A DNA stretch of 64,000 nucleotides from Hyphomicrobiales bacterium (GTDB taxonomy: Bacteria > Pseudomonadota > Alphaproteobacteria > Rhizobiales > Xanthobacteraceae): positions 1,363 through 65,362 of the forward strand of contig JBEPUC010000018.1 in assembly GCA_041691675.1 (NCBI GenBank), given 5' to 3'. The position numbers were made by a program, and so were the translations under genes. This document shows positions 40,207-56,404 of the stretch, piece by piece (position 1 is the first letter of the stretch; each line of letters begins with the position of its first letter). The notes beneath the pieces were generated by a model. That model was not told the DNA's origin. It made no database searches and was given only the letters and a program-made list of their open reading frames with translations.

Positions 40207-40220
40207 CCGAAGCGGATTTT

Positions 40221-41880
40221 TCATTCCGCCCTCGTCGCATCTGGAGTGCCGTCGTCAACATCAAGGACATATTGAGGAAACTTTCGCATTTCCAATACCA
40301 AATCCTCTAGCGAAGGTGTCTCGTATTTGTCTCCAACGGTACCTGGAGCATGCCCGCACATCGCATCCCTGACACGGCGCTCAATACCGGCACGCGCAGC
40401 CCGCCGTTTAAACGTATGCCGCCATGCGTGATTTGGGCTAATATTTTTGTCATCGACACCGAGAGAACGCACCCAGTCACCTATTTTTTGTCGAACAGAA
40501 ATCCAAGGTGCGCGCACAGGCCGTGTCGGATCAGTACTTTCTCGGCGCTTTTTTGCTCCATTGTAAAAGAGTGGACCAAGGCCCGCGCTCTGAACAAAGT
40601 CTATGAAGCCCTGATCGATAAGGTCGGTATGCAGAGGCACAGTTCTAGCCTTTCGCCCCTTAACCGCACCGGCCTCTGGCGTGATGTGCATTGTCCAAAA
40701 ACCAGCCTTGTGCTGTAGAAAATCCTCCTTACGGACTTGTGTTACCTCTCCCGGCCGTGAGCCCGTATAAGCACAAAGCCATGGCACCCACCGTCGAGCT
40801 GCAACCTGAAAACGACTTGTACGCGCTGTCGGCGCATCAAGCGACGCGCGAAGGATCGTCTTCCATTCACCCTCATTAAACTCACGACTGCGGAGCTCCT
40901 GTAGTTTGCGTGGAACCGCAATAGAAACGTCCTCAAAAGGATTGGCATCGATAATCTTGTTAGCCTTAGCCCATTCAAAGACGGTCGAAGCGGCACGCAA
41001 CCACACATCATTCGCGACTTCAGGCGATCTATTTGCTGTTACAAGTGTACCTTTCCAACTGATTGCGTCCTTATTTGAGATGGAGGCAATGTCTCTATCT
41101 GGGAAAACCTTTTCTAGAGCAAGAAAAACGGAGCGCCAGCGGTTAATGGTTGCTGGAGCAGGTCGTCTCTCTTTCACCCAGGCCTCGAAGACCTGCCAGC
41201 ATGTCACACCAGCGAGCTTCAAAAGACTGTCGGCCGATATCACCGGAAATCGTTGCGGCCGTGGGTCGACGCCGTAATCACCACTTGTCCGACGCTTTAA
41301 AAGCGCGAGCGCAGCCACATATTCGCTCTCGACCTTTTCCAGAAAAAGCTCTCTCGCGTCATCGGTCAGCTTGATCTCCCTTTCTGCAAGAAAGGTCTCC
41401 ATCTGGCCGCGCTCAACAAGATGGGCGTGAACATGGCGTCGGAGTGCGGGTAATTCCATCCACCTTGGATCGCTATCCGGATGGTCGGCATCGTCAGGAG
41501 CAAATCGTGCGTAGACCGCATCCAATTGATCGTAAATTAAATCCCAATGGTGAGATTCACCGGGATCATCCTCATAGCGGTCTACAAACCAGATGTACCA
41601 TTCGCCAGCCAGGCCGTGCGCTTCACGCTGGGTCAGGGAACGCCCCTCGCCCTTAGCAGCAGTTCGGAACGCGGCGATGCGGCCCGAGATAGCCGAGTCC
41701 CATTCTCGAAATTGCTGCTTGGCTTGATCTGATGGAAGGGTTCCTGGCCGGCGGAACCGCTCCTCGCGAGCTATCCCGTGGACCCGCTTGTAGGCGTCCC
41801 GGACGTCACCTGGGATGGCTTTACGGCCAAACCAATCGCCGTTTTTCGCTCGCTGTAATGAGGTCATCGGTACAAGCATT
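40221..41880 (-). CDS. Tyrosine recombinase/integrase with DUF6538 N-terminus
   Basis: YTGSRPGE (R), NHAWRH (HxxR), CGH and DKY catalytic residues; adjacent to the tRNA 3' end. Confidence 0.92.
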
Positions 41881-41962
41881 TGTAGCACCCTTTGTAGCGG
41901 TAGGGCGCTCAAACTCTCTGCTATCCCTCAACTATCTGAGGAAAAGGCATTTTCAACGCTAA

Positions 41963-42049
41963 TGGTGCGGACGGAGGGAATCGAACCCTCACGGGGTTAC
42001 CCCCAACGGATTTTAAGTCCGGTCTGTCTACCAATTCCAGCACGTCCGC
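41963..42049 (-). tRNA. tRNA-Leu (TAA), 87 nt, CCA encoded
   Basis: GCGGACG/CGTCCGC acceptor stem, anticodon loop CTTAAAA, long variable arm and GTTCGATT T-loop. Confidence 0.95.
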
Positions 42050-42160
42050 TCTTCACCATAGCTACCATTTCTTTTGATATCTCAATGTGTTATGCAATTC
42101 CGCCTAACCACCCCGATCCGTGCCTCACCACTGCACCACACAACATTTGATGGCTAGCCA

Positions 42161-42532
42161 ATGGCTAACTCGGCATTATCTGACGCTTCCATACGGAGTT
42201 TTAAGCCGCCCGAAAAGGGGCAGCTAAAGTATTGGGATGAGAAGCTCCCCACGTTTGGCGTGCGCATCAGCCAGGGTGGCAGCAAGACCTCTATTCTCAA
42301 CTACCGAAACAACTACATCAGCATCGGCCGCTTCCCGATAATCTCGCTGTCGGAAGCGCGCACGCAAGCCAGACGACTTTTGGCTGAGTTTACCCTCGGC
42401 AAAGGGCGCCCCCAGGCCATTACTTACGAACAGGCTGTAGAGGCCTTTCTCAAAGACCGTGCCGAGAAAGCGCGGGCGCGTACCGTGTCGGCGCACCCGG
42501 TGCCGGTAAGACCACCTTCATTTCAGCGATGA
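42161..42532 (+). pseudogene. Integrase N-terminal arm-binding domain (DUF4102-like), truncated
   Basis: LSDASIRSFKP..YWDEKLPTFGVRISQGGSKT..IGRFPIISLSEAR. Homology ends near 42486. Confidence 0.8.
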
Positions 42533-44025
42533 TTGCAGACGACCTGAAGAAGGTCGCCCGCAACGAATGCTCCATCTTTGTGATGGACAGTCAGAACGAG
42601 CTCGTTCCGGATATTTCGAAGCTGGAGATGTTTGCGCCAGGGCGGCCACTACACAATAAACTTATATACTTGGAGCCCGACCCCGATTATCCGTTGGCCC
42701 TCAACATCTTTGACACCAACAAAACACGCTCGCAAAGGCTTTCCTCGAAAGAGCAAGCCATGCTTGAGAGCGGCGCAATTTGGATGGTGGAATTCTTCCT
42801 CAGCTCTTTGGTCAAATCGGAAGCCTCCCCTCACCAAGATACATTCCTGAATTACGTCATACCAGCGTTGCTCGCGATACCCGACGCCACGATTTTTACC
42901 TTCAAAGATTTGCTTGAGGGCGCCAAGGTCAAAAATGGGCCGACAGGTTACGACCATTACAAGCAGCATTTCACCAGCTTGCGCCAAGATACCCAGGAAT
43001 GGCTCCGCGACCGCATGCACAGCCCTGAAATGGCGACGACCCGCAACGCCATACGGACCCGCCTGGACGGCTTCACCGCCCGTGGCTTTTTTCACGATAT
43101 GTTTGCTCATCCCCGCAACAAACTCGACCTTTTTGCGGAAATGCAAAGTGGCAAGGCAATCCTGGTCAACACCTCGAAAGGTTTGCTCAAGAACGGCACC
43201 GAACCCTTTGGGCGCTACTTCATTGCCCGTCTCTTGCAAGCCGCCGAAGAGCGCATGTTTTTGAGCCCAGGAACCCGCCTGCCCGTCTACTGTTACCTAG
43301 ATGAAGCTTCCGACTACATCTCAGAAGAAGAAAATATCGAGGAGCTTATAAATAAGGCCCGCAAGCAAAACGTCGCACTTATCATTGCCAATCAGATGGA
43401 ATCTCAAATCAAATTGCCAGTCGTTCGAGATGCGCTGAGCCGCGTAGCCATCCAATGCCGAGGCGAGCCCGGAGAACCCGGCCAGCCTCCGAAGTGGGAT
43501 ATCGCTATCGGCAATCAACAGTCGGTCCAAATCCAGGTGCCTAACGTCAATTTCGCCACGATGCCGCAAATGTCGAGCGCCAATTATGAGCAAATGCTCA
43601 CCGATATGCGCTGTCGCTTTTCTACATCGGCTGTGGAGCGCGCGCAGACACAGCAGCGGCGTGATGATGACAGGACGGCTAGCGGCGAGACACATCAACG
43701 ACGCGAACCGCCCAAACCCGAGAGGCCCACAGGACCTCCGAGAGATGACGAGTACGACGAGCGCTACGACAGTTTCGAGCTGATGTCGCTGCATCCTGTT
43801 AAAGCCCGCAAGGGAACGGTTCTCACAGTGACCTGCCCAAACGGCCATGAGCATCTACAGCCAATCGCTCCGGGCACACATAATGGCTTTCGTTTTTGCA
43901 TCAGAGGAGTCGGTACTACCCGCCGTCCCGACAATAGAAACGGTAATTTTTGGGTTGAACTTGCTATCCCTGAAATGCGCGAGCAACAGACCGATTCCAA
44001 CGAGACCGACGCAAAGCCGTGGTAA
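42487..44025 (+). pseudogene. VirD4/TraD-like ATPase lacking its 5' end, with a DnaJ C-terminal-like tail
   Basis: Walker A GAPGAGKT at 42490-42513, in frame upstream of the tracked ATG; Walker B YLDEA; ARKQNVALIIANQ. No start codon precedes Walker A. Confidence 0.75.
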
Positions 44026-44133
44026 TTTCCTGTGCTATCATTTTAGGGGCACTACATCACACGCCTACATCAGCAGCCTCAGCTCACCATGGCTGCCGGT
44101 GACCAACTTTTATAAGCGAGTATTCTACAATGC

Positions 44134-45069
44134 ATGAAAGAGAGAAATTCACGATGGGATGACGAGCCGAGGCTTAAGGACGGTAAGCCTGTCATTGTCA
44201 CGCCGTGCGAAAGCGACCTCAAGCTCTTTCAGTTGCTCCTGCGCTATCGATACCTCCCCGCTAATTTCATACTGCCCTTCACCGGCTTTTATTACAGCTA
44301 CGTCAAAGGCCGCTTAGACGTACTGGCCCGACAGCCGAACAAGTTTTTGCACCGGCCGGAAAAGCAACGCTCGCAGCCAAATGCCGGGTATCGCTACCTC
44401 ATTTATGAGCTTGCCTCTAAAGGCGAGCAGAAGCTCAAGGACGCCGGACTTTGGACGCCTGAACCGCAACTGGGCGATAAAAAGCTCTTTGCGCACTCCC
44501 TCATGGTTTCTGAGACGATTGCCAGCCTGGAGCTTGGCTGCCAGTCAATGATTTGGTGGCCCGAGATTGCCGCCCGCCTCCCGAAGCCCGAGCGCCATAT
44601 CCCCGTTGAAATATCCCACGGCAAGCAAACGGCGGCATTTGATTACTACAACGACAGCAATGGCCCGTTCGGCATCCGCTACTCCGATGGAACGGCGCGT
44701 TTCTTCTCTCTTGAGGCCGAGCACACCAACCAGGTGGATTGCAGTAACCTCCGCAAAACCTCATTTCTCAAGAAGTTTCTCGCTATCAAGCACATCATGG
44801 ATACAGGCGCGTACAAACGCGTCTGGGGCTTGCCCAACCTCGTGACGCTGGTGGTCACCTCCTCACAAGCCCGGATCGACACCATGAAAGACCTCATCTT
44901 GCGGGAAACCAACGGCAAAGGCGTGCGCTACATCGCCTTCTACAAGATCCCCGTCATGGAGGACTTGGAAGCCTCAAAACCCATGCCGGAGATGTACACG
45001 AATGGCTGGCAACGCGCCGGTCATCCCGACCTCTATCTCAACGAGCCCGTTGAGACGAAGTCACGTTAG
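44134..45069 (+). CDS. Replication-relaxation (Replic_Relax) family relaxase
   Basis: N-terminal wHTH-like region, LFAHSLMVSET, FFSLEAEH and LVTLVVTSSQARI, directly downstream of the coupling ATPase. Confidence 0.78.
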   Translation: MKERNSRWDDEPRLKDGKPVIVTPCESDLKLFQLLLRYRYLPANFILPFTGFYYSYVKGRLDVLARQPNKFLHRPEKQRSQPNAGYRYLIYELASKGEQKLKDAGLWTPEPQLGDKKLFAHSLMVSETIASLELGCQSMIWWPEIAARLPKPERHIPVEISHGKQTAAFDYYNDSNGPFGIRYSDGTARFFSLEAEHTNQVDCSNLRKTSFLKKFLAIKHIMDTGAYKRVWGLPNLVTLVVTSSQARIDTMKDLILRETNGKGVRYIAFYKIPVMEDLEASKPMPEMYTNGWQRAGHPDLYLNEPVETKSR

Positions 45070-45078
45070 GAGAACACA

Positions 45079-45270
45079 ATGGAAGCGAAACTGGCTCGAT
45101 TGAAGGACTTGATAGCTAAGCGGGACGAGATCGACGGCGAGCTGTGCCTGCTTTTAGGTGTTGAGAAAAAGGAGCGGAAGCCCCTTTCCTGTTCCAAGTG
45201 CGGCGAACAGGGTCATACTGCACGCACCTGTCAGAAGGACACTCCGGATGCGAACCAGCCACGTGGATAA
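45079..45270 (+). CDS. 63-aa coiled-coil plus CCHC zinc-knuckle protein
   Basis: CSKCGEQGHTARTC = C-X2-C-X4-H-X4-C; RBS AGGAG. Confidence 0.8.
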   Translation: MEAKLARLKDLIAKRDEIDGELCLLLGVEKKERKPLSCSKCGEQGHTARTCQKDTPDANQPRG

Positions 45271-45436
45271 GGCCATAGATGTGCTGCGTTGACTTAGGCT
45301 CGCCGGTAAGGACGATAATCGGGAACTTAATAAGCTTAATTATACAGCAAGTTCGAGCCCTTTTAAGTAAATAGCCGTTGACCTAACTCTACTTTTAGTC
45401 GTATTTGCTGCCCGTGGCTTCAAACGGGGATAAATA

Positions 45437-46138
45437 ATGAAAGTTCTTACATTGCTCGCAGGAGCGAGCTTGCTCGTTTCGGCCTTGGGCGGGACGGCAC
45501 ATGCAATCACTGTCGATGGCGTTCTCGATGCTGGGTACGGCGCCTCGACTTCTACTGTTACGTATGACGCGAATGCGCAAACCAGCAATTTCGGTAGCCC
45601 TGGCTCTTCGACCAACGCACTTGGTTACAACGTCTATCTCGCCGATCAGGCGGGCACGTTGTACGGATATTTCCAGGGCACAACGGGGACCTCGGCGGGA
45701 GCATTCGCTAACCTCTACTTCGGGCTAAACCATGATCAAGTAGCTGGCTCGATCTTTGGCTTCGAGTTAGGTAACAATAATGCCTTTACTCCAGGTGCGT
45801 CGGGCTCAGTCGCCACGCCGCTCGTGAATTTCGTTGCCTCTGGCAACAACATCGAGTTCTCGATCCCGAACTCGTATTTTGAAGGCGTTCTTGCGGGCCT
45901 CACAAATACGACGTTTGCTCAAAATGGCGACACCATTACCCTTCGTCTCTCCCAGACCTTCGGCTATTCAGTCGCAGGTGGTGACAACTTCGGCACCGGC
46001 GATGCTCGCTTGGGCGAAGTAACTTTGGCTGACGTATCGACGACCCCCCTTCCGGGTACGCTGCCGTTGTTCGCCAGTGGCTTGGGCGCGCTCGGTTTGT
46101 TCGTTGCGCGCAAGAAGCGTAAGAACGCGGCCGCCTAA
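45437..46138 (+). CDS. PEP-CTERM (PLP variant) surface protein
   Basis: Signal peptide; C-terminal TTPLPGTLPLFASGLGALGLFVARKKRK sorting signal. Confidence 0.85.
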   Translation: MKVLTLLAGASLLVSALGGTAHAITVDGVLDAGYGASTSTVTYDANAQTSNFGSPGSSTNALGYNVYLADQAGTLYGYFQGTTGTSAGAFANLYFGLNHDQVAGSIFGFELGNNNAFTPGASGSVATPLVNFVASGNNIEFSIPNSYFEGVLAGLTNTTFAQNGDTITLRLSQTFGYSVAGGDNFGTGDARLGEVTLADVSTTPLPGTLPLFASGLGALGLFVARKKRKNAAA

Positions 46139-46163
46139 GGATTGGAATCGTTGTTGGATATGG

Positions 46164-46197
46164 AAGGCCCGCGTTAATGCGCGGGCCTTTTGCTTTT
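46164..46197 (+). terminator. Rho-independent terminator
   Basis: AAGGCCCGCG/CGCGGGCCTT stem plus T-tract. Confidence 0.75.
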
Positions 46198-46401
46198 AGC
46201 ATGAGAAATTATCTGGCTCTCAGTCTCTTTCACATGCTACAAAATACCATGCGGAAAAATCCCATAACCTTCGGCGCTTTTTTCAACTCTATTTTTACGA
46301 CACAACGTCTCGTTAGGATTGCATTGATATTGGCGTTTACTGTCGCGGCCGCCTACCTTCAAGTCCATCACGGCGGTTCTTGAGTGGACTTAAAATAATA
46401 G

Positions 46402-46424
46402 AAAAACCCCGCACTAGGCGGGGT
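46402..46424 (-). terminator. Rho-independent terminator of ardC
   Basis: CCCCGC/GCGGGG stem plus T5 on the minus strand. Confidence 0.7.
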
Positions 46425-46434
46425 GTAGTAGTCA

Positions 46435-47283
46435 TTACGCCGCTTCTTCGAGTTGCTCCGTAAAGCCTCTCAAATAATCTGCGGCTTTCGAGGCTTTCGA
46501 TGCAGCAGTGAAAATAGCACGGCTATCTTCTTTGAATAGCTGGAGCCAATTTGCCAAATATTCCGCATGGCGTAGTTGGCCAGTGACACTCAAGTGAGCA
46601 CAAAGGAACGCTGCACCAAGTTCGGCTACCAACTCCTCTGCCGCATAGGCATTCGTACCAAAGCGGGTTTTCAAGTCGCGGTCGAGGCGCTTAGGGTGCC
46701 CAGACCAATGGCAACATTCATGTAGTGCCGTCGCCAAGTAGTGCTCGTAACTCTCAAAGGCGGTTGTATCTGGTAAGCGTATGAAGTCGTCTGCGGGGCG
46801 ATAGAACGCCATATCGCCGCCGTGCCTTATGTCGGCTTTGGTAGCTTGGATAAACGCCGTAGCCTGGTCATCGCGCGCTTGTTGCGAGAGAACAGGTGAG
46901 GGCGCTTCTTGCTCAATGCCATCCATTTGGGAGACATTGAAAACGTGGAAGCTTTTGAGATACCCGACGCTCTTTGCATCATCGCCTTCTCCTACAATCA
47001 TCTTGTTTGTGTAAACGACGCGCGTGGACTTCTCGCCGCCCTTCACTTGGGCGCCAATGGCCTGTGCTTGCTTGTAAGTGAGCCACAGAGAGCTCGGCCA
47101 GTCGTTGCGTATCTGGCTATCCCAAAGGATGCAGATATTGATGCCCGAGTAGCTGCGCCTGGTAGCAAAGTTGCGGGGCATGATGCTGCCGCCCTTCACC
47201 GTCCATGGCCTTGTCCATGGGACGGTACCAGCCTCAAGCTGTTTGATGATGGTATCGGTAACCGATACGTACAAATCCGCCAT
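46435..47283 (-). CDS. ardC: ArdC-like antirestriction protein
   Basis: GTVPWTRPW, YSGINI, WLTYKQAQ, LHECCHWSGH and YAAEELVAELGAAFL. Confidence 0.9.
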   Translation of the reverse strand: MADLYVSVTDTIIKQLEAGTVPWTRPWTVKGGSIMPRNFATRRSYSGINICILWDSQIRNDWPSSLWLTYKQAQAIGAQVKGGEKSTRVVYTNKMIVGEGDDAKSVGYLKSFHVFNVSQMDGIEQEAPSPVLSQQARDDQATAFIQATKADIRHGGDMAFYRPADDFIRLPDTTAFESYEHYLATALHECCHWSGHPKRLDRDLKTRFGTNAYAAEELVAELGAAFLCAHLSVTGQLRHAEYLANWLQLFKEDSRAIFTAASKASKAADYLRGFTEQLEEAA

Positions 47284-47332
47284 AGCGAACCTCCATTGTT
47301 GTGGAACGTCCGCTTCTCATTGTACCGCGCCG

Positions 47333-47641
47333 TTAGTTCGCCACCTCTAGTATCAACACGCGAATAGTTTTGTTGCAGTCGAGAGGGTCGCGGCTGCGCC
47401 CTTTCAAGTTGGCGGTGCGATACTCGATGTGCCAGCGTATCGGGGGCGCCATAAGAATTAACCCTGCATCGTGGTGGCCATCCTTTCCGAAACTGGAGTA
47501 GGCGCGCACGCGGCGTAGCGCTTCATTCTTGATTGTCTCAGGAAGCTCGTAGAACTCTCGCGACATCATCACTACACCAAGCAAGGCGGTGCGCATGTTG
47601 TCGTTAAGCAGTCGGAGTGTGTGCAATCGCGACATGCTCAA
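47333..47641 (-). CDS. DUF3768-like protein
   Basis: LNDNMRT, RVRAYSSF..GHHDAG and DPLDCNKTIRVL; upstream of ardC. Confidence 0.6.
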   Translation of the reverse strand: MSMSRLHTLRLLNDNMRTALLGVVMMSREFYELPETIKNEALRRVRAYSSFGKDGHHDAGLILMAPPIRWHIEYRTANLKGRSRDPLDCNKTIRVLILEVAN

Positions 47642-47755
47642 TAATCACGTTTTTATCTGCGTGAATGTACGGCTGCAATGTTGGGCCATGGAGCGCCAAG
47701 CGGAGCAATGATGTGCCACGCGCGAACTAGATTATTTTTGCCCGTCACTTACGGT

Positions 47756-48241
47756 ATGCGCATGGGCTTCATCAGAGAAAAAACAATTAAAGGCCGCCGG
47801 TATCGCTATTACCAACACAATGTCCGTAAGGGTAAGAAGGTTGTGTCGGTTATGACGTATCTGGGGGCTGTGGGTGCTATGACGGCGATCAGTGTGCTCG
47901 CGGCGCGAGATGCGGCGGGAAAGGATAAGCCTATCCGTTATAAGTCAAGGATGTTCGGCACCGATAAGCGGGCTAACGCGCACCAGGAGGCCTATAACCG
48001 CGAACGGTGGGAAAAGGAGATGGCAGACCCAGCGGGGCGTTTTGCGCGGGAGGCAGGTAAGGCAAAGATGCACAGTGACAGAAAGGCAGGAGAAACGCCA
48101 AAACCCTCACGGGCCGACGTAAAGGCTGAGAAGGCTAAAGCGGAAGAAATGCGGGAGTTTAACGAGCGACTCAAAGAGGCGAGGGCTGAGCAGGAGGAGG
48201 GTATCGCTATGAGGAACGAGCGGGAGGAGAAGTCTGCTTAG
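47756..48241 (+). CDS. Basic/charged hypothetical protein
   Basis: N-terminal IKGRRYRYYQHNVRKGKKVVSVMTYLG beta-hairpin motif and a coiled-coil tail. Confidence 0.6.
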   Translation: MRMGFIREKTIKGRRYRYYQHNVRKGKKVVSVMTYLGAVGAMTAISVLAARDAAGKDKPIRYKSRMFGTDKRANAHQEAYNRERWEKEMADPAGRFAREAGKAKMHSDRKAGETPKPSRADVKAEKAKAEEMREFNERLKEARAEQEEGIAMRNEREEKSA

Positions 48242-48428
48242 CTAGTCGCTTCGTCTTCGGCCTTCCGCCCTTCTTGCCATTGATGCGGGCAGCCTTTGCC
48301 TTCTTCTTGGATTTGATTGAACCGAGTGCGACTGCGGCTTGTTTGCGCTCCCAACAGTCATCGCAAAGGCCTTCGTGGAACGGCGACCATGATTGGGCGG
48401 AGCACTTTGCACATGTATACATGGCCAT
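48207..48428 (-). CDS. Small Zn-finger protein with an AARxNGKKGGRP basic tail
   Basis: CAKC...CDDC and KAARINGKKGGRPK. Confidence 0.65.
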   Translation of the reverse strand: MAMYTCAKCSAQSWSPFHEGLCDDCWERKQAAVALGSIKSKKKAKAARINGKKGGRPKTKRLAKQTSPPARSS

Positions 48429-48429
48429 A

Positions 48430-48636
48430 TTATTTATTCGGAGGCACAAAGTCCTCATTAGCTGCTAACTCCCTCAATTTGTCGCGTAAGGGCTGTGCCA
48501 GTGCAATAAGCTCTGAGGCTATGTGCGCGCTCTCTTCAATTGCACCCGATGATTTTCCATCCCAAAAGCTCGCGACCTCTTCAAGCCCGCGAATAAATCT
48601 CGTTAACTCCGCTTCAAGTGATGTATGGTTGTCCAT
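48430..48636 (-). CDS. Hypothetical helical protein
   Basis: 68-aa ORF in a tightly packed minus-strand run. Confidence 0.55.
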   Translation of the reverse strand: MDNHTSLEAELTRFIRGLEEVASFWDGKSSGAIEESAHIASELIALAQPLRDKLRELAANEDFVPPNK

Positions 48637-48639
48637 AAA

Positions 48640-48921
48640 TTATTTGATATTCGAATAAGCGGGGTGGCACTGCGGACACTCTCTCGTGTCGAGGCTTTCC
48701 CCGTGAGCGTCTAATTGCGCCAGGCAGCCCGTGCCGCCGCACGTTTCGCATTTTGGCTCGGCAATCTCATCACGGCGCACCCAACGCCTGATGTACTCGC
48801 CGTCTCGGTTAGTAACGCCGATACAAACGCTGTAGCCCGTAGGAGACTTACTATCGAACTCGACTACCTTGCCCTTGGTGCCGTCTTTGAGCACCACTTT
48901 GTCTAAGATTATGAGAGGCAT
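48640..48921 (-). CDS. Hypothetical protein with an SH3/KOW-like N-terminus and a Zn ribbon
   Basis: DKVVLKDGTKGKVVE; CETC...CPQC. Confidence 0.6.
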   Translation of the reverse strand: MPLIILDKVVLKDGTKGKVVEFDSKSPTGYSVCIGVTNRDGEYIRRWVRRDEIAEPKCETCGGTGCLAQLDAHGESLDTRECPQCHPAYSNIK

Positions 48922-48933
48922 ATTAGTGGCGCT

Positions 48934-49032
48934 TTATCCGAGCGCCTGATAACCGAATAAAAAGACCATGAGCGAGCTGAACAGAACGAAACTGAGAAAC
49001 AGTGCAACCAACATCCAAACTTCTTTGTGCAT
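48934..49032 (-). CDS. 32-aa single-TM peptide
   Basis: MHKEVWMLVALFLSFVLFSSLMVFLFGYQALG; not in the ORF track. Confidence 0.45.
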   Translation of the reverse strand: MHKEVWMLVALFLSFVLFSSLMVFLFGYQALG

Positions 49033-49177
49033 AAAACGTGTTAATTAGGCTTGTACCTCTACATTGTAACCGAACGGTGGGATTGTACCAGCAAATCGTT
49101 GTGTATAAGGAGGCAGACGACACAAAAGTTATAGTGTCAATAAGCGCCTCGCTATATCTTTGTCCTGAGGTGCCTTC

Positions 49178-49378
49178 ATGACTAATCCTGGCCGAACGGA
49201 TGTAAGTAAAGCGTGTACCAAGTGCGGAGGCCGCATGTATTTGGCCGATATACGCAAGGCTGAGCAGAAGAAGCAGGAGGAGGTTCACACCTTTAACTGT
49301 GAAAAGTGCGCGGCACAAAATAGCTTTGCCTTTCCGAAGCTGCCGCGACTGTATCGTTCCGCTAAAGACCTTTCATAG
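49178..49378 (+). CDS. Small Zn-ribbon protein
   Basis: CTKCGGRM...FNCEKC; RBS GAGGTG. Confidence 0.6.
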   Translation: MTNPGRTDVSKACTKCGGRMYLADIRKAEQKKQEEVHTFNCEKCAAQNSFAFPKLPRLYRSAKDLS

Positions 49379-49666
49379 AAACTTATTCCTTTTTTACGCT
49401 CGCGTTTCCCTTCAGAAGCCAGCATCACCTCTCAACCGACTGGTGTTCTCACACAAACAACGTGTCGCTCCAATGCACGCGATTGAAGACGATTGCGGCC
49501 TCCTATGTGGGGAGAACTTGCCGCTTGTAATAATAACACGTGGTAAAATGGGTGCAGATGTAGATTGGTGCGCGGCATCCGCGACGTTACGGCCGAAGCG
49601 TCGTGGGTCCCGCACATCAATCAAAGCAGTAGCGGGAAAGGAGTATCTCATGGCTAAAGAAGCTAA

Positions 49667-49990
49667 GGAGAAGCCGCAGCCCGCTGCAAAGTTTCGGCTC
49701 GGCTAGCCGTGGGAGACAACACCGGCTTTAGCACCGGGCCTCATTGCCATACTCAATGGCGGCGCATCAACTGGAACGGCGGCACGAACTACACGACTGT
49801 TGACATCAACGAGGCCAACAACTCCTTTGACCCGACCCAGTTTTATACAGGTGCAACTCCAACACCGCCCGAGCTTGGCCCCGCCGATAAGATAGCGGTT
49901 ATGGCCGCAGAAAAGGAAACCTCGGGCGACAGCAAGACTGCCACCATGCTCTGGGCAGTCGTCAACTTTATCAAAGCCTTCGGAAAATGA
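49667..49990 (+). pseudogene. M23 peptidase (endolysin-like) C-terminal fragment
   Basis: GDNTGFSTGPHCH (HxH) motif. The frame is open only from 49667, so the first Zn-ligand motif is missing. Confidence 0.7.
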
Positions 49991-50033
49991 GGGGGTATAA
50001 TTACTCGGTGCGATTATTCTTCATCTAAACATC

Positions 50034-50291
50034 ATGGAAATCATCTTAGCCGTCTTGGTCTCAGCTCTTACTCAATGGCTTAAACAGCATATGCCAAACC
50101 AGTATTACACGCTTGGTCTTGTCGCTGTGCTCTCGCTCGTTGGTGCAGGCATCTATACGACCCTGGTAGATATCGGGTACTGGCGGGGTGCATTGCAAAT
50201 CATGATAATTGCCGGGGCAATTTACACGTACATCATTGCAAGGTTTGAGGGCGGTTCAGAGGTAAACACCTACATGCCTCCACAGGGCTAA
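50034..50291 (+). CDS. Holin-like membrane protein
   Basis: 85 aa with 2-3 TM segments, directly after the M23 fragment. Confidence 0.55.
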   Translation: MEIILAVLVSALTQWLKQHMPNQYYTLGLVAVLSLVGAGIYTTLVDIGYWRGALQIMIIAGAIYTYIIARFEGGSEVNTYMPPQG

Positions 50292-50350
50292 AACAGCATC
50301 TATTTCGCGCAAAAATGCCCCCTACAACGATGTTCGGGGCCTTTTGCTAT

Positions 50351-50815
50351 TCATATGTTTCTTAGCTTCAAGTATGGCTTAAATACCTCGACAAGCCTTG
50401 GATATTCGGCCGTCAAATCCTTTTCCATGTCTGCCAGTTGATCGGCCCACTCACTCTTCCGAGGATCATTCAAAGGCAGTGTATCAGTCTGCCTAGATTT
50501 CGTCCTGTGTGCCAGCAGCTTTGTTCGCAGCCCGTCCAGATACACAGTCACTTCCTCTTCGAAGAGGAAGACCACGTCAGCCGTGTTAAAATTAAAATTT
50601 GCTACATCTTTTCCTTCTACGCGACCTTCAGCCATGAAGCCCGCCAGGAATCCTCTAGCGCCTTCAAATATCTTCAAACGTTTTTCAAATAAATCTAAAT
50701 TTAGCTTTGCCGATGCGATTCTGGCTTGCTTTAAGGCGATCCATGAACCGAGGCATGAGATAACTATCAGCGCAATTGCCTGAGCCCATTGCATCCACCA
50801 CGGCAAATAGTACAT
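50351..50815 (-). CDS. Membrane-anchored hypothetical protein
   Basis: One N-terminal TM followed by LNLDLFEKRLKIF helical region; immediately downstream of the candidate ncRNA. Confidence 0.7.
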   Translation of the reverse strand: MYYLPWWMQWAQAIALIVISCLGSWIALKQARIASAKLNLDLFEKRLKIFEGARGFLAGFMAEGRVEGKDVANFNFNTADVVFLFEEEVTVYLDGLRTKLLAHRTKSRQTDTLPLNDPRKSEWADQLADMEKDLTAEYPRLVEVFKPYLKLRNI

Positions 50816-50910
50816 CACAGTCTCCACTTTCAATTGAGCCAGGTACAGCCTCTTTATACCCTTCAGTAGCACGATGCTCTTGGTCTTCTGTGTCTTTATG
50901 TGAAGCGTAG

Positions 50911-51391
50911 CAGTCTGTCTTTCAGTGAGCTCAGAGCCTACCCTTTAGAGGATGAGCTAACAAAGACTGGAAAGTGAAGTTAAGCGGCGAAAATTGAAAA
51001 ATTGTTGGCGGCTAAAAACTAGTTTCGCGACCACACCCTGGCGGGCTTTCTACACGTGAATTATTTCGCGCCTTATCACATGAAGTGGCACCTCATTCTT
51101 AGCAGTCAACAATCTTTCAAAGTACACCGTCTCGCATCCCCATGAAGTCGCCAGTCGTCAGGGCTAAGACGTTGCTGGCGATTGGAGGGGAAACGAGAAT
51201 AGGATGGGTTTTTACCGTGCGAGCATCCTTGAGAGCACGTCTACGCTTGTTGTAGAACGAATTAGAGCCACTCCCATTTAAGGAAGCGGCTCGTATTCGG
51301 AATGATTGTACGAGATGTACCCAGAAATTATAACACATGGTGTTACGGCCTCAGGGCACAGTACGTTATGTACAGTCTCGATTGTCATTCC
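50911..51391 (-). ncRNA. Candidate large structured ncRNA (~480 nt)
   Basis: At least 8 contiguous helices found by eye, G-U wobbles favouring the minus strand, a possible pseudoknot, and an extended -10 promoter placing +1 at the first helix. Confidence 0.6.
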
Positions 51392-51396
51392 TACTA

Positions 51397-51405
51397 ATAT
51401 TACCA
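51397..51405 (-). promoter_or_regulatory. Extended -10 promoter (TG-G-TAATAT)
   Basis: Minus-strand TGGTAATAT ends 5-6 nt before GGAATGA at 51391. Confidence 0.55.
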
Positions 51406-51610
51406 CAGTTTCATGCGTCCATCATCATGGGTGTGGATAATGGATCGTGGCCGCGAGCTTGATGCTCCGAAAGCCATGTATGATGAAGCGATCGCAAGAG
51501 CTGCCTTTGGGAAAGGGCGGCTTTTTGCTTGTCCCATAGGCTGCGAATCACCAACATGCACGCTAAGGTGTAGGGAGATAAGGGAGAATACTGTGCCACC
51601 CGCGCAATCT

Positions 51611-51934
51611 ATGAAAGATTCAACCCTCGACGATCTCACATCAGCTCTATGCGAGGCGCCGACCAGCCAAAAGCATTGGAATGCTAAAGCGGAATTCTCC
51701 CGGCGGCAATTCGAAGACCAGAAGGAAACGTCGAGGTATCAAATCATGGCGGCTGAGGCAGAGGTTAAGGCGGCAAACGCTGCGACACTAGCTGCGGATG
51801 CAGCGGTTAAAGCAACACAGGCCGCCGAGAGAAATGCAAGATACATGCTGGCGTCTGTCGTTGTTGCGGCACTTGCAGCAGTCGCGTCTGCTGTGTCAGC
51901 CCTAGCGACGGTCCACCCTGCATTATTCAAGTAG
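51611..51934 (+). CDS. Ala-rich coiled-coil protein with a C-terminal TM
   Basis: ATG after a GGGAG RBS region; AAEAEVKAANAATLAA and YMLASVVVAALAAV. Confidence 0.6.
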   Translation: MKDSTLDDLTSALCEAPTSQKHWNAKAEFSRRQFEDQKETSRYQIMAAEAEVKAANAATLAADAAVKATQAAERNARYMLASVVVAALAAVASAVSALATVHPALFK

Positions 51935-51980
51935 ATGCAATAGCGACGGAGTGGGTTCTGAAAGGCTTCCAGGTGCTGCA

Positions 51981-52175
51981 ATGAACAAGCTCGCCATACT
52001 GCCCAATGTCACTATCGTAGCCATGAACGGGATGCTTAATCTCTTCCATGCAATAGATGAATGCAAAACGCTTGAAGAAGCGAAACCACTCATCATCAAG
52101 GCGGTGGGTTTAGTCGACTTCGTTTTGGCGCAGGCTCGGGAGGCCGTTTTGGAAGACGGCCCCACGCGCCACTAA
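51981..52175 (+). CDS. 64-aa helical hypothetical protein, homologous to 40018-40206
   Basis: Shared LPx(I/V)TI...(D/E)EA(R/K)..I..A......V...AR.A pattern. Confidence 0.6.
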   Translation: MNKLAILPNVTIVAMNGMLNLFHAIDECKTLEEAKPLIIKAVGLVDFVLAQAREAVLEDGPTRH

Positions 52176-52352
52176 CCAAGCCCCCAGGGGGCTCAGCAAC
52201 GGCCCTGCCAGATTCAATTTAATTTCTCTCTCCGCACGTTCCCAGTGCTCTTTTTCTTTATCCTCCGGCTGGCCTTCCTCGTTCCAAATTTCAAAGGCAC
52301 GCTGGCGGATGCGATTTTCTAAAATACGGCTCTCTAATTCATCGTCATTCAT
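52110..52352 (-). CDS. DUF2934 family protein
   Basis: IRQRAFEIWNEEGQPEDKEKEHWERAERE. Confidence 0.85.
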   Translation of the reverse strand: MNDDELESRILENRIRQRAFEIWNEEGQPEDKEKEHWERAEREIKLNLAGPLLSPLGAWLVARGAVFQNGLPSLRQNEVD

Positions 52353-52423
52353 GGTCTCTACCTCCATTGCCCCAACCAGCCACACAGGACCTTGTTCCAT
52401 TACAAATAGATTGCGCTTCTTTG

Positions 52424-52981
52424 CTAGTGCTTTTTGATCGCGGCAACTACGCTCGGCATGAGGACGGCGGCAATCCTGGCATGAGACGCGGCAGTGAGAT
52501 GATGCCCATCCGCCTGATAATTTGAGCCTCCACTTCGCATTGGCCCTAAAATCCGCTGGTATGGCGCGACTATTGGCTTTGCCCCATGCGCCCGGATTGC
52601 GCTTATAATTCTGGCCTTATTAGCGTTTATGCTCCCTTCCGAACCGCCGCGCTTCCTGTCGTTATCTCCTCCAGTATCGAAAATCACAACGCGCGTTCCT
52701 GCTGAAATATTTGAAGCCCTGCTCAGCACTCCGCCGCTTGTGTCGCCATTCAGGGCGTTCACGCTCACCGTCACGTCATACCCCTTCGCCCGCAACATAC
52801 GCTCAAGCTGCGCTGGCCATGCTTCCGATGTAGAAACACCCCTGCCGTTGGTATTGCTTGCGCCGAGAGCCAATATCTTAACTGTCTCAGCACGAGCCAC
52901 GCCCGGCCCACCAAGCGCGAATAATCCAACGAACAGCACAGCAGTTAGCAGATGTCTTTTAGAATGCCCCTTTTGCACCAC
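52424..52981 (-). CDS. Exported SGNH/GDSL hydrolase
   Basis: LALGASNT block I, NALNGDTS, DTGGDND and DGHH block V. Confidence 0.85.
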   Translation of the reverse strand: MVQKGHSKRHLLTAVLFVGLFALGGPGVARAETVKILALGASNTNGRGVSTSEAWPAQLERMLRAKGYDVTVSVNALNGDTSGGVLSRASNISAGTRVVIFDTGGDNDRKRGGSEGSINANKARIISAIRAHGAKPIVAPYQRILGPMRSGGSNYQADGHHLTAASHARIAAVLMPSVVAAIKKH

Positions 52982-53238
52982 ACCCTCCCGGTCCTAATTG
53001 GATAATGACGCCTGTATCCGGCTTGCCGATATTCGATATCGAATGCACACAAAAAGCAACGCACACGTATAAGAATAAATTAGATTGCGCCGAGTTGAAC
53101 GGCGGTCGCCCCGAACAAGTCACCAGACATATGCACCCTGATTTTCACAGGTCGAGGGAATCGGACTCCTGTTGTTCGGTTGCTTCCGAGGGTAATAAGA
53201 AGCTAGCGACGTGCCCACCAATCCTGCTTCATTGTATC

Positions 53239-53406
53239 TTAATAAAAGCCAAGCTTGTGCAGTTGGTGCTGCACAAGTCTATTGAAATCCTCTGCCCGCA
53301 TTTTTGCCTCATGAAACATCGGATCGCTATTCTGACCGTAAAGTATTAACTCGTCGAAAATCACGAACGTCACGAACAGCACTAAGAGGGCCATTAGTGT
53401 CCTCAT
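53239..53406 (-). CDS. 55-aa membrane-anchored peptide
   Basis: MRTLMALLVLFVTFVIFDELILYGQNSDPMFHEAKMRAEDFNRLVQHQLHKLGFY; RBS GGAGGT. Confidence 0.6.
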   Translation of the reverse strand: MRTLMALLVLFVTFVIFDELILYGQNSDPMFHEAKMRAEDFNRLVQHQLHKLGFY

Positions 53407-53474
53407 CCCCACCTCCCCTTGCGGCTCCTAGCCCCGAAGTATGACGGTCGGGGATAGTTTGCCGAAAGACGATT

Positions 53475-54044
53475 TTAGAACGCTGGCTCATTCTCCGCTA
53501 GCGGCTCTGTATCTTTGCTGTGCGAAATATCGGACTGTGCAGTATCGAACGGATTTTCGCCTGAAAAGAGAGCATCTAGGTTGATAGGCTTCTCTTTATA
53601 AGCCTGGAGTACTTCCGGGGGCGTCTCCTTGGCCGGTGACGGCACGACGCTGTACTCAGTCTCCAACGCTTCGCCTTTGCGGTTTATCGTAATGCTGTAC
53701 TGGCGAGGGTCGCCCCAGTCCTCGTTATTAATAAGTTCCTGGATCGCCGATTGTATCGTGGCCTGAGTAAGCTGGAGTATCTCAACAGCCTTGGTGTCGA
53801 AGTTCCACACCACAAATGCCCAGAAATGCTTTTGCGGCCAACCCTTGTTTAAGTCCGCATCAGCAGGAACAACCGTCCACATCTGCTTGGCACGAACCGG
53901 CTTGCCATCCTCATTCCAGTATTGCCACCCCATGACCGGAGCCGAAAGCACACGAAATTTGTTTGCGCCTGTGCGGAGCTTCATGTAGCCGCCGCCGCTT
54001 GATTTAGGAACCTCGTAACCCTCCGGCAAAAATCCTGTATCCAT
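53475..54044 (-). CDS. Phage SSB/annealing-like protein
   Basis: YMKLRTGANKFRVLS, HFWAFVVWN, WGDPRQYSITINRKG and an acidic tail ending in Phe. Confidence 0.6.
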   Translation of the reverse strand: MDTGFLPEGYEVPKSSGGGYMKLRTGANKFRVLSAPVMGWQYWNEDGKPVRAKQMWTVVPADADLNKGWPQKHFWAFVVWNFDTKAVEILQLTQATIQSAIQELINNEDWGDPRQYSITINRKGEALETEYSVVPSPAKETPPEVLQAYKEKPINLDALFSGENPFDTAQSDISHSKDTEPLAENEPAF

Positions 54045-54231
54045 AAATTATTTTGTTATCTGCTAATTATCATCGGCGTACCGATTGCTATCTTTTAATA
54101 CCCTGCCTTCCTCACCATCCCACCACTTATTTTCCATTTCAATCATCGAGCGTAGAGTACCTCGGTTGTGAGCGTTTAATTTTATTCCCGTCTTCTCCTT
54201 GTAAGCTGCAATTTCCTCTTCCACCGTCATG

Positions 54232-54414
54232 CTAGAAACTCATCATATCGTTGATAAGGGCGCGGTAGTTTCCACGCGCAAGCATCAATCGACCACGCGC
54301 TGCTTTGACCTTTAGCTCTCCTCTCTCACGTAGGGCTTGGGCCTTTGCAAACTCGCTCACTGCCTCGCCCTCCTCTTTGAGGGCGGCCTCTAGTTCTTCC
54401 GCTTTCGGTTTCAT
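54232..54414 (-). CDS. Small phage-like hypothetical protein
   Basis: Helical ORF in the leftward operon. Confidence 0.5.
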   Translation of the reverse strand: MKPKAEELEAALKEEGEAVSEFAKAQALRERGELKVKAARGRLMLARGNYRALINDMMSF

Positions 54415-54419
54415 ATTAA

Positions 54420-54617
54420 TTATGCGCACCAGCGGGAGAAATTGATATCCAACGATTTCAACGCCTCAGCAGCCAACTCTTGCGCGTTTGCCGCACCGTC
54501 AGCTATTTCTTTTAATACCTTGCAATGAAGCTCATCCTCGGCGCCATGCGCATTTTCGTCGTCGCTTTTATTCGCTTCTATCAGCGTGAGTATCTGACGT
54601 ACATCTGTGACTTCCAT
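54420..54617 (-). CDS. Small phage-like hypothetical protein
   Basis: DDENAHGAEDELH...FSRWCA, a phage-type small ORF. Confidence 0.6.
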   Translation of the reverse strand: MEVTDVRQILTLIEANKSDDENAHGAEDELHCKVLKEIADGAANAQELAAEALKSLDINFSRWCA

Positions 54618-54690
54618 ATAATTGTTACTCTATTCCGCATCCGCTGCTTATCAAAAGCAGATACGGAGCAGAGAAGATAAGCTTATAAAT

Positions 54691-54873
54691 CTACTGGGGA
54701 ATAAAGAGCCCCGCCCCTGATGCAAACTCTACGCCTATCAAGACGTACATCGTGATGATGGATAGTGTTGCAAGGAACGCTAGGAGCAGCCTGCGCCCCG
54801 CCCCGTACTTCTTCTCTCGATAGTCGGCGGCAATGGTGTTGCGGCCGATACCTTCAATATATTTCATATGCAA
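54691..54873 (-). CDS. Small membrane protein, first gene of the leftward operon
   Basis: One TM segment. Confidence 0.5.
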   Translation of the reverse strand: MHMKYIEGIGRNTIAADYREKKYGAGRRLLLAFLATLSIITMYVLIGVEFASGAGLFIPQ

Positions 54874-55000
54874 TGTGAGTAAGTTTGTAATGGCGGCTCG
54901 ACCGGTCCGCTACACCAAATCTACCATGCCCTAGAATTGGTGCAATGCGACTTATCCCCACCCGACACCGCGACACATTTGGATGTGATATACTGAGAGC

Positions 55001-55144
55001 ATGGCAAAGAAAACGAAGAAGACGAAGCCGACGTATCAAGTGCGCTTATCAGAGGAACATTACGAGCTAATTAGACGCAAAGCCTTTCGCGCTCACAGGC
55101 CGATGACCGCGATACTAGAAGAGATAATTGCCGCGAAGGCATGA
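55001..55144 (+). CDS. 47-aa ribbon-helix-helix-like regulator
   Basis: MAKKTKKTKPTYQVRLSEEHYELIRRKAFRAHRPMTAILEEIIAAKA; not in the ORF track. Confidence 0.7.
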   Translation: MAKKTKKTKPTYQVRLSEEHYELIRRKAFRAHRPMTAILEEIIAAKA

Positions 55145-55239
55145 GAGGAGATACAGGCGACATAGTTGCATTTTGGCTCTTCGTTTCAGTCTTAGTGTCG
55201 CTCGTTATTTTCGACATCTGGTGTTTTTTCGTACTATGA
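55141..55239 (+). CDS. 32-aa TM peptide
   Basis: ATGA overlaps with both neighbours; hydrophobic. Confidence 0.55.
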   Translation: MRGDTGDIVAFWLFVSVLVSLVIFDIWCFFVL

Positions 55240-55364
55240 CCAACCGCCCTTGCTTAAAATGCAAAGAAATAACGTTCCAAGAACGTCGCCCTTACGGCAA
55301 AGACTTTTATCAATGGTTCTGCTCCCGCTGCCAAAAGACAGCGTGGGTCGCCAAGATTGTATGA
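55236..55364 (+). CDS. 42-aa Zn-ribbon protein
   Basis: CLKC...CSRC; ATGA-coupled on both sides. Confidence 0.6.
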   Translation: MTNRPCLKCKEITFQERRPYGKDFYQWFCSRCQKTAWVAKIV

Positions 55365-55630
55365 GCATACTCACTCTCAAGGACCGACTTGCCCGCTATC
55401 TCCGCAAGAACAATGATTGGATCGCTTCGGGCGACATCCAACGCATTGTCGCTGAGAAGACAACTTACTCGCCGCAAAATGTCGGTCGCAGAATGCGGGA
55501 GTTACAGAATGAGGGTGTCGTGGAGGTCAAGTACGTGAAAAACCATGCGCACTATCGGTTCAAGCTCCAAGAAACTTGGGAGCAGAAGAACGCGCGGGCT
55601 GTGCGGATGTTTGAGCAAATGCCGGGATAA
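55361..55630 (+). CDS. Winged-helix-like DNA-binding protein
   Basis: IASGDIQRIV...SPQNVGRRMRELQNEGVVEV. Confidence 0.6.
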   Translation: MSILTLKDRLARYLRKNNDWIASGDIQRIVAEKTTYSPQNVGRRMRELQNEGVVEVKYVKNHAHYRFKLQETWEQKNARAVRMFEQMPG

Positions 55631-55855
55631 AAAGAGACCGCCCACTCAGGCGGTCACAAAAAGAAGCCCCGGCGATTTGACCGGGGCTTCCCAGTTTTGC
55701 CCGAGGCTCAGACTTTATCCCGGGTGCGGTCATCATAGGTGTCGGGTGATTAGGGAGTGCTGAATCCGAGGGAACGGAAGAATTTAAATGGCTAGCCAAT
55801 GGCTAACAAAGAAGATATTTTAATGTAATCAATAACTTAGTCCGGGTATCGATCT

Positions 55856-55896
55856 GATTTTAAGTCCGGTCTGTCTACCAATTCCAGCACGTCCGC
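55856..55896 (-). pseudogene. 5' half of tRNA-Leu left at the host-side attachment site
   Basis: Identical to 42009-42049; diverges right after the anticodon loop. Confidence 0.9.
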
Positions 55897-55951
55897 ATGT
55901 CGCTTCATCATCCGCTCGCACGGATGGAAGTCCGGCGCGCGGCTTATCAAT

Positions 55952-56404
55952 TTATTTCGGTAATAACGAGCCCCATACTTCGTCCCAGTCCTTGCCGGAC
56001 GGGTCGGTGACGCGGCCGTCTTTCTCATAGAACTTGTTCGGTATCTGGAAGATCGCAACGAACATGCCGCCGTTGGGCGACCACGCCGAATGCCGGCTGC
56101 CGGGCGGACGCCAGACGAACTCGCCGGCGCCGACCTCGATGCCGGCGTCGGGACCTTCCTTGTCCACCAGCGAGCCTTCCAGGACATACGTCTGCTCGAT
56201 CAGGACGTGTTCGTGGTCGGGCAATTCGGCACCGGGCTCCATCTTGAACAGTAGCGTCGCTAGCCCGCTCTTGGGATCGAACATCAGCGTCTTGGTCTGA
56301 CAGCCGGGAAAGCGCGACGTCTGCCACGGCATATCCTTGGCGCGCACGACGCGCGAGAGCAGGTCAACGGCCCCGGCTTTTTCAGTATCTGCCTTGACGT
56401 TCAT
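55952..56404 (-). CDS. ChrR-like cupin
   Basis: LPDHEHVLIEQTYVLEG and WRPPGSRHSAWSP. Confidence 0.85.
   Translation of the reverse strand: MNVKADTEKAGAVDLLSRVVRAKDMPWQTSRFPGCQTKTLMFDPKSGLATLLFKMEPGAELPDHEHVLIEQTYVLEGSLVDKEGPDAGIEVGAGEFVWRPPGSRHSAWSPNGGMFVAIFQIPNKFYEKDGRVTDPSGKDWDEVWGSLLPK

Follow-up and report, generated by a model that had tools for sequence, protein, structure and literature searches.

The tRNA-Leu(TAA) locus

The DNA considered here, referred to below as the window, is a stretch of 64 kb that was analysed whole and belongs to one metagenome-derived contig of a Hyphomicrobiales bacterium; its subject is a tRNA-Leu(TAA) gene and the 13.8-kb remnant of a tyrosine-integrase element that adjoins it. 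An initial annotation, made from the sequence alone, had proposed that the element integrated through the 5' half of this gene and took over its promoter. The tRNA-Leu(TAA) gene is the sole tRNA gene that ARAGORN and Rfam find within the 64 kb, in agreement with that annotation, and the features that define the locus are the following.

41963-42049, minus strand: intact tRNA-Leu(TAA) gene (ARAGORN; Rfam RF00005, 57.6 bits; sequence)
42009-42049, minus strand: attL copy of a 41-nucleotide (nt) repeat, tRNA nt 1-41 (repeat search)
42050-42160: integrase-proximal (P') arm, element DNA that now lies upstream of the tRNA gene (sequence; MAFFT arm alignment)
42161-42532, plus strand: integrase stub, an open reading frame (ORF) of 123 codons (Pfam PF13356, E=9e-11; alignment; tblastn)
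55856-55896, minus strand: attR copy of the repeat, the displaced host 5' fragment of tRNA-Leu(TAA), joined to the host upstream flank (repeat search; empty-site contigs)
55952-56404, minus strand: host cupin (ChrR-like) gene that marks the chromosomal flank (Pfam domains on the matching Logan contig; flank common to the empty-site contigs)

The repeat search returned an exact 41-nt direct repeat at 42009-42049 and 55856-55896, which confirms that the duplicated block is the 5' half of the tRNA gene up to the anticodon loop. The block spans the gene from +1 to 2 nt beyond that loop (TTTTAAG, 42011-42017, so that the repeat begins 2 nt before it), and the identity ends precisely at +1. A chance origin is excluded, because an exact repeat of this length is not expected in 64 kb and because populations differ by a clean 13,847-bp insertion or deletion between the two copies. 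The copy at 55856-55896 received no tRNA call from ARAGORN and matched no Rfam tRNA model even at E<=10, as a half molecule would be expected to behave, and on both counts it is a truncated 5' fragment, as had been proposed. In the intact gene, the 3' half (41963-42008) is chromosomal, while the 5' half, which falls within the 41 identical nt, comes from the element past the crossover. The crossover region itself is probably the anticodon loop, since the tRNA homology of related elements stops there. The GC content is 0.46-0.55 between the repeat copies (about 0.52) versus 0.60-0.65 beyond 56 kb (about 0.62), the drop being restricted to the insert, and the stop codon of the host cupin gene lies 55 bp upstream of the original 5' end of the tRNA. 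An exact-sequence look-up of the cupin gave just one 1.7-kb contig from the source run, and that of a gpt protein gave no record.

Empty sites and a second island at the same gene

The 13.8-kb segment is an insertion into the tRNA-Leu(TAA) gene. Logan contigs of soil runs were placed on positions 41000-57500, and contigs from three soil metagenomes of different studies (X27, X11 and X13) have 42008 followed immediately by 55856; the joint omits 13,847 bp, 41 letters are common to its two sides, and the host flank shows 1-3 mismatches. In these populations the intact tRNA gene therefore sits 55 bp downstream of the cupin gene. That the element supplies the DNA upstream of the intact gene in the window, as the initial annotation had held, is borne out by alignment, which identifies the sequence from 42050 onward as element DNA through its match to the integrase-proximal arm of relatives (see below). 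Several soil metagenomes carry the right-hand chromosomal flank, and both junctions of the insert are present in full in one public run only, the freshwater-sediment metagenome X1. An exact 54-nt attB pattern had no match in metagenome contigs. In the source run, the depth is flat (about 16x) across both the insert and the island described next, and no attB or attP joint was found, although a rare variant could escape detection in contigs. At the repeat the contigs of this run are interrupted, with flanks of equal depth on either side, which bears on the possibility of a chimeric assembly at 41993-42020.

The same tRNA gene carries a second, classical island at its 3' end (hereafter the left island):

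34771-41979: classical island at the tRNA gene's 3' end (k-mer search; sequence; Pfam)
40221-41912, minus strand: tyrosine recombinase of the left island, 563 aa (Pfam)

A 19-nt direct repeat with copies at 34771-34789 and 41961-41979 (the last 17 nt of the tRNA gene plus 2) marks the ends of the left island, which also encodes an AAA_25 protein, a trypsin-like peptidase and a fragment of a type I restriction R-subunit. Together, the left island and the 13.8-kb element leave a single tRNA gene flanked by foreign DNA on both sides. A contig from soil metagenome X2 contains the end of the left island and the intact tRNA gene (41911-42049) and continues with ATATCGCTTCAC, which matches the host flank ATGTCGCTTCAT at 55897 in 10/12 positions; the two islands are thus independent insertions, the left one occurring without the right. 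In X11, the sequence to the left of the tRNA 3' end belongs to neither island and resembles the chromosomal flank of the window at about 34760.

Gene content and decay of the insert

Beyond the integrase stub, the insert encodes the following recognizable genes, and its remaining ORFs have no assigned function.

42529-44025, plus strand: type IV secretion coupling-protein-like gene, N-truncated (tblastn against plasmids plus annotation; phrog_5156 profile positions 522-703 of 824)
44134-45069, plus strand: replication-relaxation family-like protein (BLASTP E=3e-9 to WP_259956301, a weak match)
45437-46138, plus strand: PEP-CTERM-anchored protein, cargo (Pfam PF07589)
46435-47283, minus strand: ArdC-type anti-restriction protein with an N-terminal single-stranded-DNA-binding domain and a zincin peptidase domain (Pfam PF08401, PF18818)
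52424-52981, minus strand: secreted GDSL/SGNH-type hydrolase, cargo (Pfam PF13472)
53475-54044, minus strand: phage-type single-strand DNA-binding protein-like gene (PHROGs 8542, 1192)
55250-55630, plus strand: gene at the element's far end for a small protein resembling winged-helix regulators (Pfam HTH_24 and phrog_2440, both weak)

The initial annotation had placed an integrase gene divergent from the tRNA gene. A gene does stand at 42161 on the opposite strand, its N-terminus about 100 bp from the tRNA 5' end, but it is an N-terminal stub and not a functional integrase. Residues 1-112 of the stub (42161-42496) match relatives of 357-396 aa (about 370), with Arm-DNA-bind_3 as its sole domain, and a tblastn search with 67 full-length relatives (357-396 aa) found only these residues in the insert and nothing further. 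No catalytic domain (PF00589) was detected in 42050-55855 by Pfam or tblastn. The relatives carry both integrase domains (the catalytic part of locus L001, for example, holds PF00589), so the stub departs from the heterobivalent, P4-like architecture in which an arm-binding domain is joined to a catalytic one. The neighbouring coupling-protein-like ORF is damaged at its opposite end: against a 699-aa homologue encoded by a Sulfitobacter plasmid, the match covers nothing before about residue 281, so that some 280 N-terminal residues are missing. A replication-relaxation family gene comes next after the homologue on the plasmid, which is also the order of the two genes in the window. Because the stub ends at about residue 112 and its neighbour starts at about residue 281, a single deletion would have taken both the catalytic part of the integrase and the front of the coupling-protein gene. 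No mating-pair genes were found in the insert, a 498-aa ORF had no match in a PDB sequence search, and the integrase N-terminus had none in viral contigs. Judged by its gene content, the insert is probably a decayed integrative mobilizable element, and it is unable to excise by its own means. A length variant also exists within the element: one source-run contig skips 101 bp (51004-51106) at a depth of 5.7 versus about 17, which marks a minor variant within the population.

Related integrases and their attachment-site layouts

A word-indexed protein search with the integrase stub gave seven short matches, one of which (P0007, at the metagenome locus L001) provided the first relative with a 5' fragment. 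Further relatives were found by aligning the stub with a few database relatives and then scanning one genome per species; the best 80 of 181 were kept and, with L001, make up 81 loci (L001, L003-L082). They come nearly all from Alphaproteobacteria, including Hyphomicrobiales, Bradyrhizobium, Rhodobacterales and Sphingomonadales, and their integrase N-termini are 34-67% identical to the stub. A piece of a tRNA gene lies upstream of the integrase gene in 76/81 loci, and its homology stops at the anticodon loop about 150-200 bp upstream of that gene. The layouts are distributed as follows.

Sense tRNA 5' half ending at the anticodon loop, about 150-200 bp upstream of the integrase gene: 23/81 loci
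Antisense tRNA 3' half ending at the same point upstream of the integrase gene: 51/81 loci
Intact sense tRNA followed by the integrase gene (classical; L074, L075): 2/81 loci
No tRNA piece upstream of the integrase gene: 5/81 loci

In the 23 loci of the first kind, the piece that adjoins the integrase gene is the displaced host fragment, and it must accordingly be the far end of the element that provides the 5' half, together with a promoter. Locus L044, from a Bradyrhizobium metagenome-assembled genome, shows in full how an element provides the 5' half: next to the integrase gene is a tRNA-Gly(CCC) 5' fragment that is damaged, an intact tRNA-Gly lies 6.6 kb downstream, and an arm motif (motif M, described below) stands 22 bp upstream of the +1 of the intact gene. 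L038 is the corresponding complete example for the 3'-fragment type, with a 45-nt repeat. When the integrases were clustered, the 5'-fragment type fell into at least five separate groups, the main one of which includes the closest relatives of the window. Three relatives (L009, L018 and L073) target tRNA-Leu(TAA) and do so in the 3'-fragment layout. As read from the aligned loci, the habit of this family is to recombine at anticodon loops, and the half of the tRNA that the element contributes can be either one.

The window combines traits of both types, in that its tRNA gene is antisense to the integrase gene, as in the 3'-fragment type, yet the 5' half of the element occupies the integrase-proximal arm and the intact gene abuts the integrase gene.

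Individual relatives show decay or complexity of their own. The stranded 5' fragment of L044 (9832-9870) has lost 5 nt (AACGG) relative to the intact copy, a decay of the host half. L006 (9716-9870 and 14344-14490) is a nested or compound site, in which a 54-nt repeat comprising the upstream region and the first 10 nt of a tRNA-Thr brackets 4.6 kb that hold an integrase gene and the 5' half of a different tRNA-Thr allele; here, an arm motif just downstream of the intact tRNA gene suggests a second element on the other side. In L001 (1060-2240), the integrase is frameshifted into ORFs of 127 aa and 217 aa, making it the second broken integrase in the clade.

Arms of the attachment site

Each arm of the element in the window contains an exact copy of a 20-nt motif:

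42150-42169, plus strand: motif M, ATGGCTAGCCAATGGCTAAC, copy 1, overlapping the integrase start codon (repeat search; relatives)
55788-55807, plus strand: motif M, exact second copy in the far (P) arm, 48 bp from the core (repeat search; far end of L044)

L044 bears a copy of motif M at the equivalent far-arm position. The motif contains a near-palindrome and is a candidate arm-type or operator site; variants of the motif (xGCCTAnnnnxGCCTAAG) are kept across the integrase family at the start of the integrase gene. The exact 20-nt motif had three matches in metagenome contigs, all by chance (helicase coding sequence and an unrelated AT-rich locus) and none in a relative of the element.

In the MAFFT alignment of the arms, the anticodon loops of the window and its relatives coincide, and the 34 nt of 5' half in the window stand where locus L016 has a non-tRNA spacer of similar length. 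The approximately 36 nt that follow the 5' half are homologous again (CATAGCTACCATTTCTTTTGATATCTCAATGTGTTA in the window versus CATAGCGTCCGTTTCTTCTGACATTTCAATGTGTTA in L016). The distances from the crossover to the arm motifs also fit the family, at about 48-57 bp to motif M on the far arm and about 45 bp to a CATAG repeat on the integrase arm. On the simplest reading of these alignments, attP would be modular, with the crossover at the loop, arm sites at fixed distances from it, and a tRNA half accommodated in either spacer.

Transcription of the rebuilt tRNA gene

The promoter of the rebuilt gene probably lies inside the 110-bp element arm at 42050-42160, because the genes at 42161-46138 run on the opposite strand, the host flank is 13.8 kb away and a pair of predicted terminators is located at the far end of the element:

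55627-55691, minus strand: two tandem intrinsic terminators, 165-270 nt inside the element from the displaced fragment (terminator scan; RNA fold z = -4.95)

Read-through from the host promoter was considered as a source of the transcript and rejected, given these predicted terminators and the 13.8-kb distance; transcription entering from 55.9 kb and running through the element, which would have contradicted the initial annotation, is unlikely for the twin minus-strand terminators at 55691-55627. The promoter-like sequence TTGAGA-N17-GCTATG that the annotation had singled out is located where it was placed, on the minus strand of the integrase-proximal arm (TTGAGA at 42085-42080, a 17-nt spacer, GCTATG at 42062-42057), and a GATATC box 26 nt upstream is an alternative candidate.

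Since the annotation had further suggested that the element might tune UUA decoding, TTA codons were counted:

11 host ORFs: TTA at 2.7 per 1000 codons, 3.1% of Leu codons
13 element ORFs: TTA at 6.7 per 1000 codons, 7.7% of Leu codons
Left island: TTA at 5.1 per 1000 codons, 6.1% of Leu codons

TTA codons are enriched in the element, by only about 2.5-fold (6.7 versus 2.7 per 1000), which is what its lower GC content alone would give. The host genes also use TTA, so that the tRNA serves both host and element, and dependence of the host on the element, or tuning of the AT-rich genes of the element, remains speculation.

Origin of the locus and alternative explanations

We favour the following course of events, to which we assign a probability of roughly 0.8. 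A tyrosine-integrase integrative mobilizable element, the attP of which bore a copy of the tRNA 5' half (nt 1-41) on its integrase-proximal arm, would have entered the chromosomal tRNA-Leu(TAA) gene at its anticodon loop. Recombination would have joined the host 3' half to the 5' half of the element, creating the intact gene at 41963-42049 and separating the host 5' half (55856-55896) and its upstream flank from it by 13.8 kb. The integrase from residue ~113 on, together with the first ~280 codons of the coupling-protein gene, would later have been lost by deletion, and the insert would have become fixed, with no self-excision. The tRNA promoter would, on this account, be inside the 42050-42160 arm.

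Several points weigh against this account. The layout of the window, with the 5' half integrase-proximal, is without a second example among the 81 relatives, so direct integration in this geometry is a deduction about a process that its uniqueness leaves unseen, and an intact copy of the element was not found in searches of metagenome contigs with the attB pattern and with motif M. To assign layouts to the relatives, ARAGORN was combined with inspection of the 330 bp preceding each integrase gene and with a regular-expression check; a covariance model played no part. On the side of transcription, a scan for E. coli-type sigma-70 promoters calls none directly upstream of the tRNA gene, TTGAGA-N17-GCTATG included. 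With that sequence as promoter, the transcript would begin no more than 1-2 nt from the mature 5' end, if not at it, an uncommon arrangement where RNase P matures the tRNA. The uniqueness of the geometry could instead mean that the layout arose by rearrangement of an element of the common type, either by inversion or by recombination between tandem elements. The element has undergone at least one deletion, and the near-palindrome of motif M could mediate an inversion; nevertheless, the clean 13,847-bp difference from the empty site, with a perfect direct repeat at the ends, and arm-motif distances that fit the family pattern on both sides make a rearranged origin distinctly unlikely. An inversion between the two M copies in particular was rejected, as it would put the CATAG arm beside attR and motif M about 20 bp from the tRNA gene, and neither arrangement is seen.

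Two other readings concern what now drives the tRNA gene. That TTGAGA-N17-GCTATG is its promoter, and that the element thereby controls UUA decoding, creating dependence or favouring its own TTA-richer genes, is a tentative proposal that we hold to be doubtful. The sequence is in the right place and orientation, it resembles what we take to be the alphaproteobacterial consensus (CTTGAC-N17-CTATAT), and the 5' fragments of relatives are preceded by visible host promoters with similar -10 boxes (CTAGAT, GATATG); TTA codons, moreover, are 2.5 times commoner in element than in host ORFs. However, a TTGAAA-N17-GCTATG block is kept in L016 with no tRNA half downstream, the CATAG of the -10 box is part of the arm motif repeated across the family, the sigma-70 scan passes the sequence over, and as a promoter it would yield a leaderless precursor. 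TTA is still rare in the element, host genes use it too (13 in 4771 codons), and a dead remnant has no obvious gain from tuning. The opposite view, in which the rebuilt gene has little or no expression, a tRNA-Leu(TAA) gene at some other genomic location does the work and nothing depends on the element, draws on the lack of a detectable strong promoter upstream and on the fact that only 64 kb of the genome are visible. We consider it improbable, because the 5' half of the element is 100% identical over 41 nt to +1, as expected under selection for a working gene, the gene scores well as a tRNA with ARAGORN and Rfam, and the same design recurs in 23 relatives. To our knowledge, Alphaproteobacteria usually have a single Leu-TAA gene. 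A more elaborate scheme, and a long shot, is that four attP layouts (a tRNA half in either spacer of ~35-50 bp, facing either way) have been switched repeatedly, that the tRNA promoter of the window overlaps the arm-type sites of the integrase, and that the 112-residue stub has been retained as a regulator of tRNA-Leu(UAA) transcription; if so, the stub would be a piece of a mobile element, domesticated to set how much of a rare-codon tRNA is supplied.

Other features of the region

The left island has, shortly inside its far end, a tandem triplet of GACATTTTGGTAT (34844-34880), the copies of which are likely arm-type sites for the recombinase of that island. Farther left, a short intergenic repeat that follows an AcrB-type gene (34188-34250) reaches a word depth of about 870x in the source run against about 16x in its flanks and recruits many contigs in two soil runs, as a high-copy dispersed repeat common to many genomes; it had no Rfam match at the gathering score. 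The region to the left of the islands (20349-34186), slightly low in GC content (0.54-0.62), is a metal-handling cluster that comprises an Fe2+ transport protein, a multicopper oxidase, an outer-membrane efflux protein, a cation diffusion facilitator, a CusB-like adaptor and an AcrB/CusA-type pump.

Comparison with known systems

The initial annotation was correct that tyrosine-integrase elements usually make use of the tRNA 3' end: the Islander survey counts 3919 islands, of which 3760 have a 3' tDNA fragment and 159 (4%) one from the 5' end (Hudson, Lau & Williams 2015, PMC4383910). Like the 5'-fragment islands of that survey, the insert lies between an intact tRNA gene and a co-oriented upstream 5' fragment, with the gene restored and the crossover centred on the anticodon. 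Measured against the Islander rules, the window has an intact tRNA gene at 41963-42049(-) and a 100% identical 5' fragment in the same orientation at 55856-55896(-), which lies upstream of the intact gene on the minus strand (55896->55856 before 42049->41963), and the 13,847 bp between populations fall within the permitted 2-200 kb. It differs in the tyrosine integrase that the rules expect inside an island, of which only the arm-binding residues 1-112 are left, so that the stub would fail the Islander integrase filter. The identity block starts at the loop, as in the anticodon-loop class of sublocations (classes of Williams 2002, as cited in PMC4383910 and bioRxiv 10.1101/2020.11.02.365908), but it runs from there to the 5' end of the gene and not to its 3' end. 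The insert thus belongs, as a decayed example, to a minority class already known, and integration through the 5' half of a tRNA gene is not new.

Three other systems invite comparison. The arg2A-VII islands of Klebsiella, with clade I.d integrases, integrate upstream of the tRNA gene, unlike all other islands surveyed (bioRxiv 10.1101/2020.11.02.365908); they differ from the window in their D-loop sublocation (anticodon loop in the window) and in their gammaproteobacterial hosts. Some mycobacteriophages destroy a tRNA gene on integration and supply a whole replacement (Guerrero-Bustamante & Hatfull 2024, PMC10865867). The host then relies on element sequence for an essential tRNA function, as it may in the window, although in the phages the core is about 10 bp, the gene is not rebuilt and a separate full tRNA is provided, whereas in the window the gene is rebuilt at the junction and only its 5' half and upstream region come from the element. 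Islands with dusA-specific integrases (Farrugia et al. 2015, PMC4482086) insert at the 5' end of the gene that they target, whose upstream sequence would, as in the window, then be element-derived; their target is protein-coding and their integrases belong to a different family.

The closest comparison is with the 81 alphaproteobacterial relatives, which share with the window a homologous integrase N-terminus, motif M at the start of the integrase gene, CATAG arm repeats and the anticodon-loop crossover. In the 23 that supply a 5' half, this half is on the far arm and the displaced fragment adjoins the integrase gene; in the window, it is integrase-proximal, and the intact tRNA gene adjoins the integrase gene and faces away from it. 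The anatomy of this clade and the integrase-proximal placement of the 5' half may be new, and PMC4383910 gives no anatomy of the half-bearing arm or of promoters for 5'-fragment islands, so that the locus and its 81 relatives lend a concrete anatomy to an island type catalogued by count only. For the organism itself the situation is ordinary, a dead island beside another island at a tRNA hotspot. More generally, an element cannot replace the 5' part of a tRNA gene without supplying a promoter as well, which places a core component of translation under transcription from foreign DNA. As about a quarter of one alphaproteobacterial integrase clade supplies the 5' half, the clade is a convenient system for the study of element-borne promoters on chromosomal tRNA genes and of how an integrase changes the orientation of its target.

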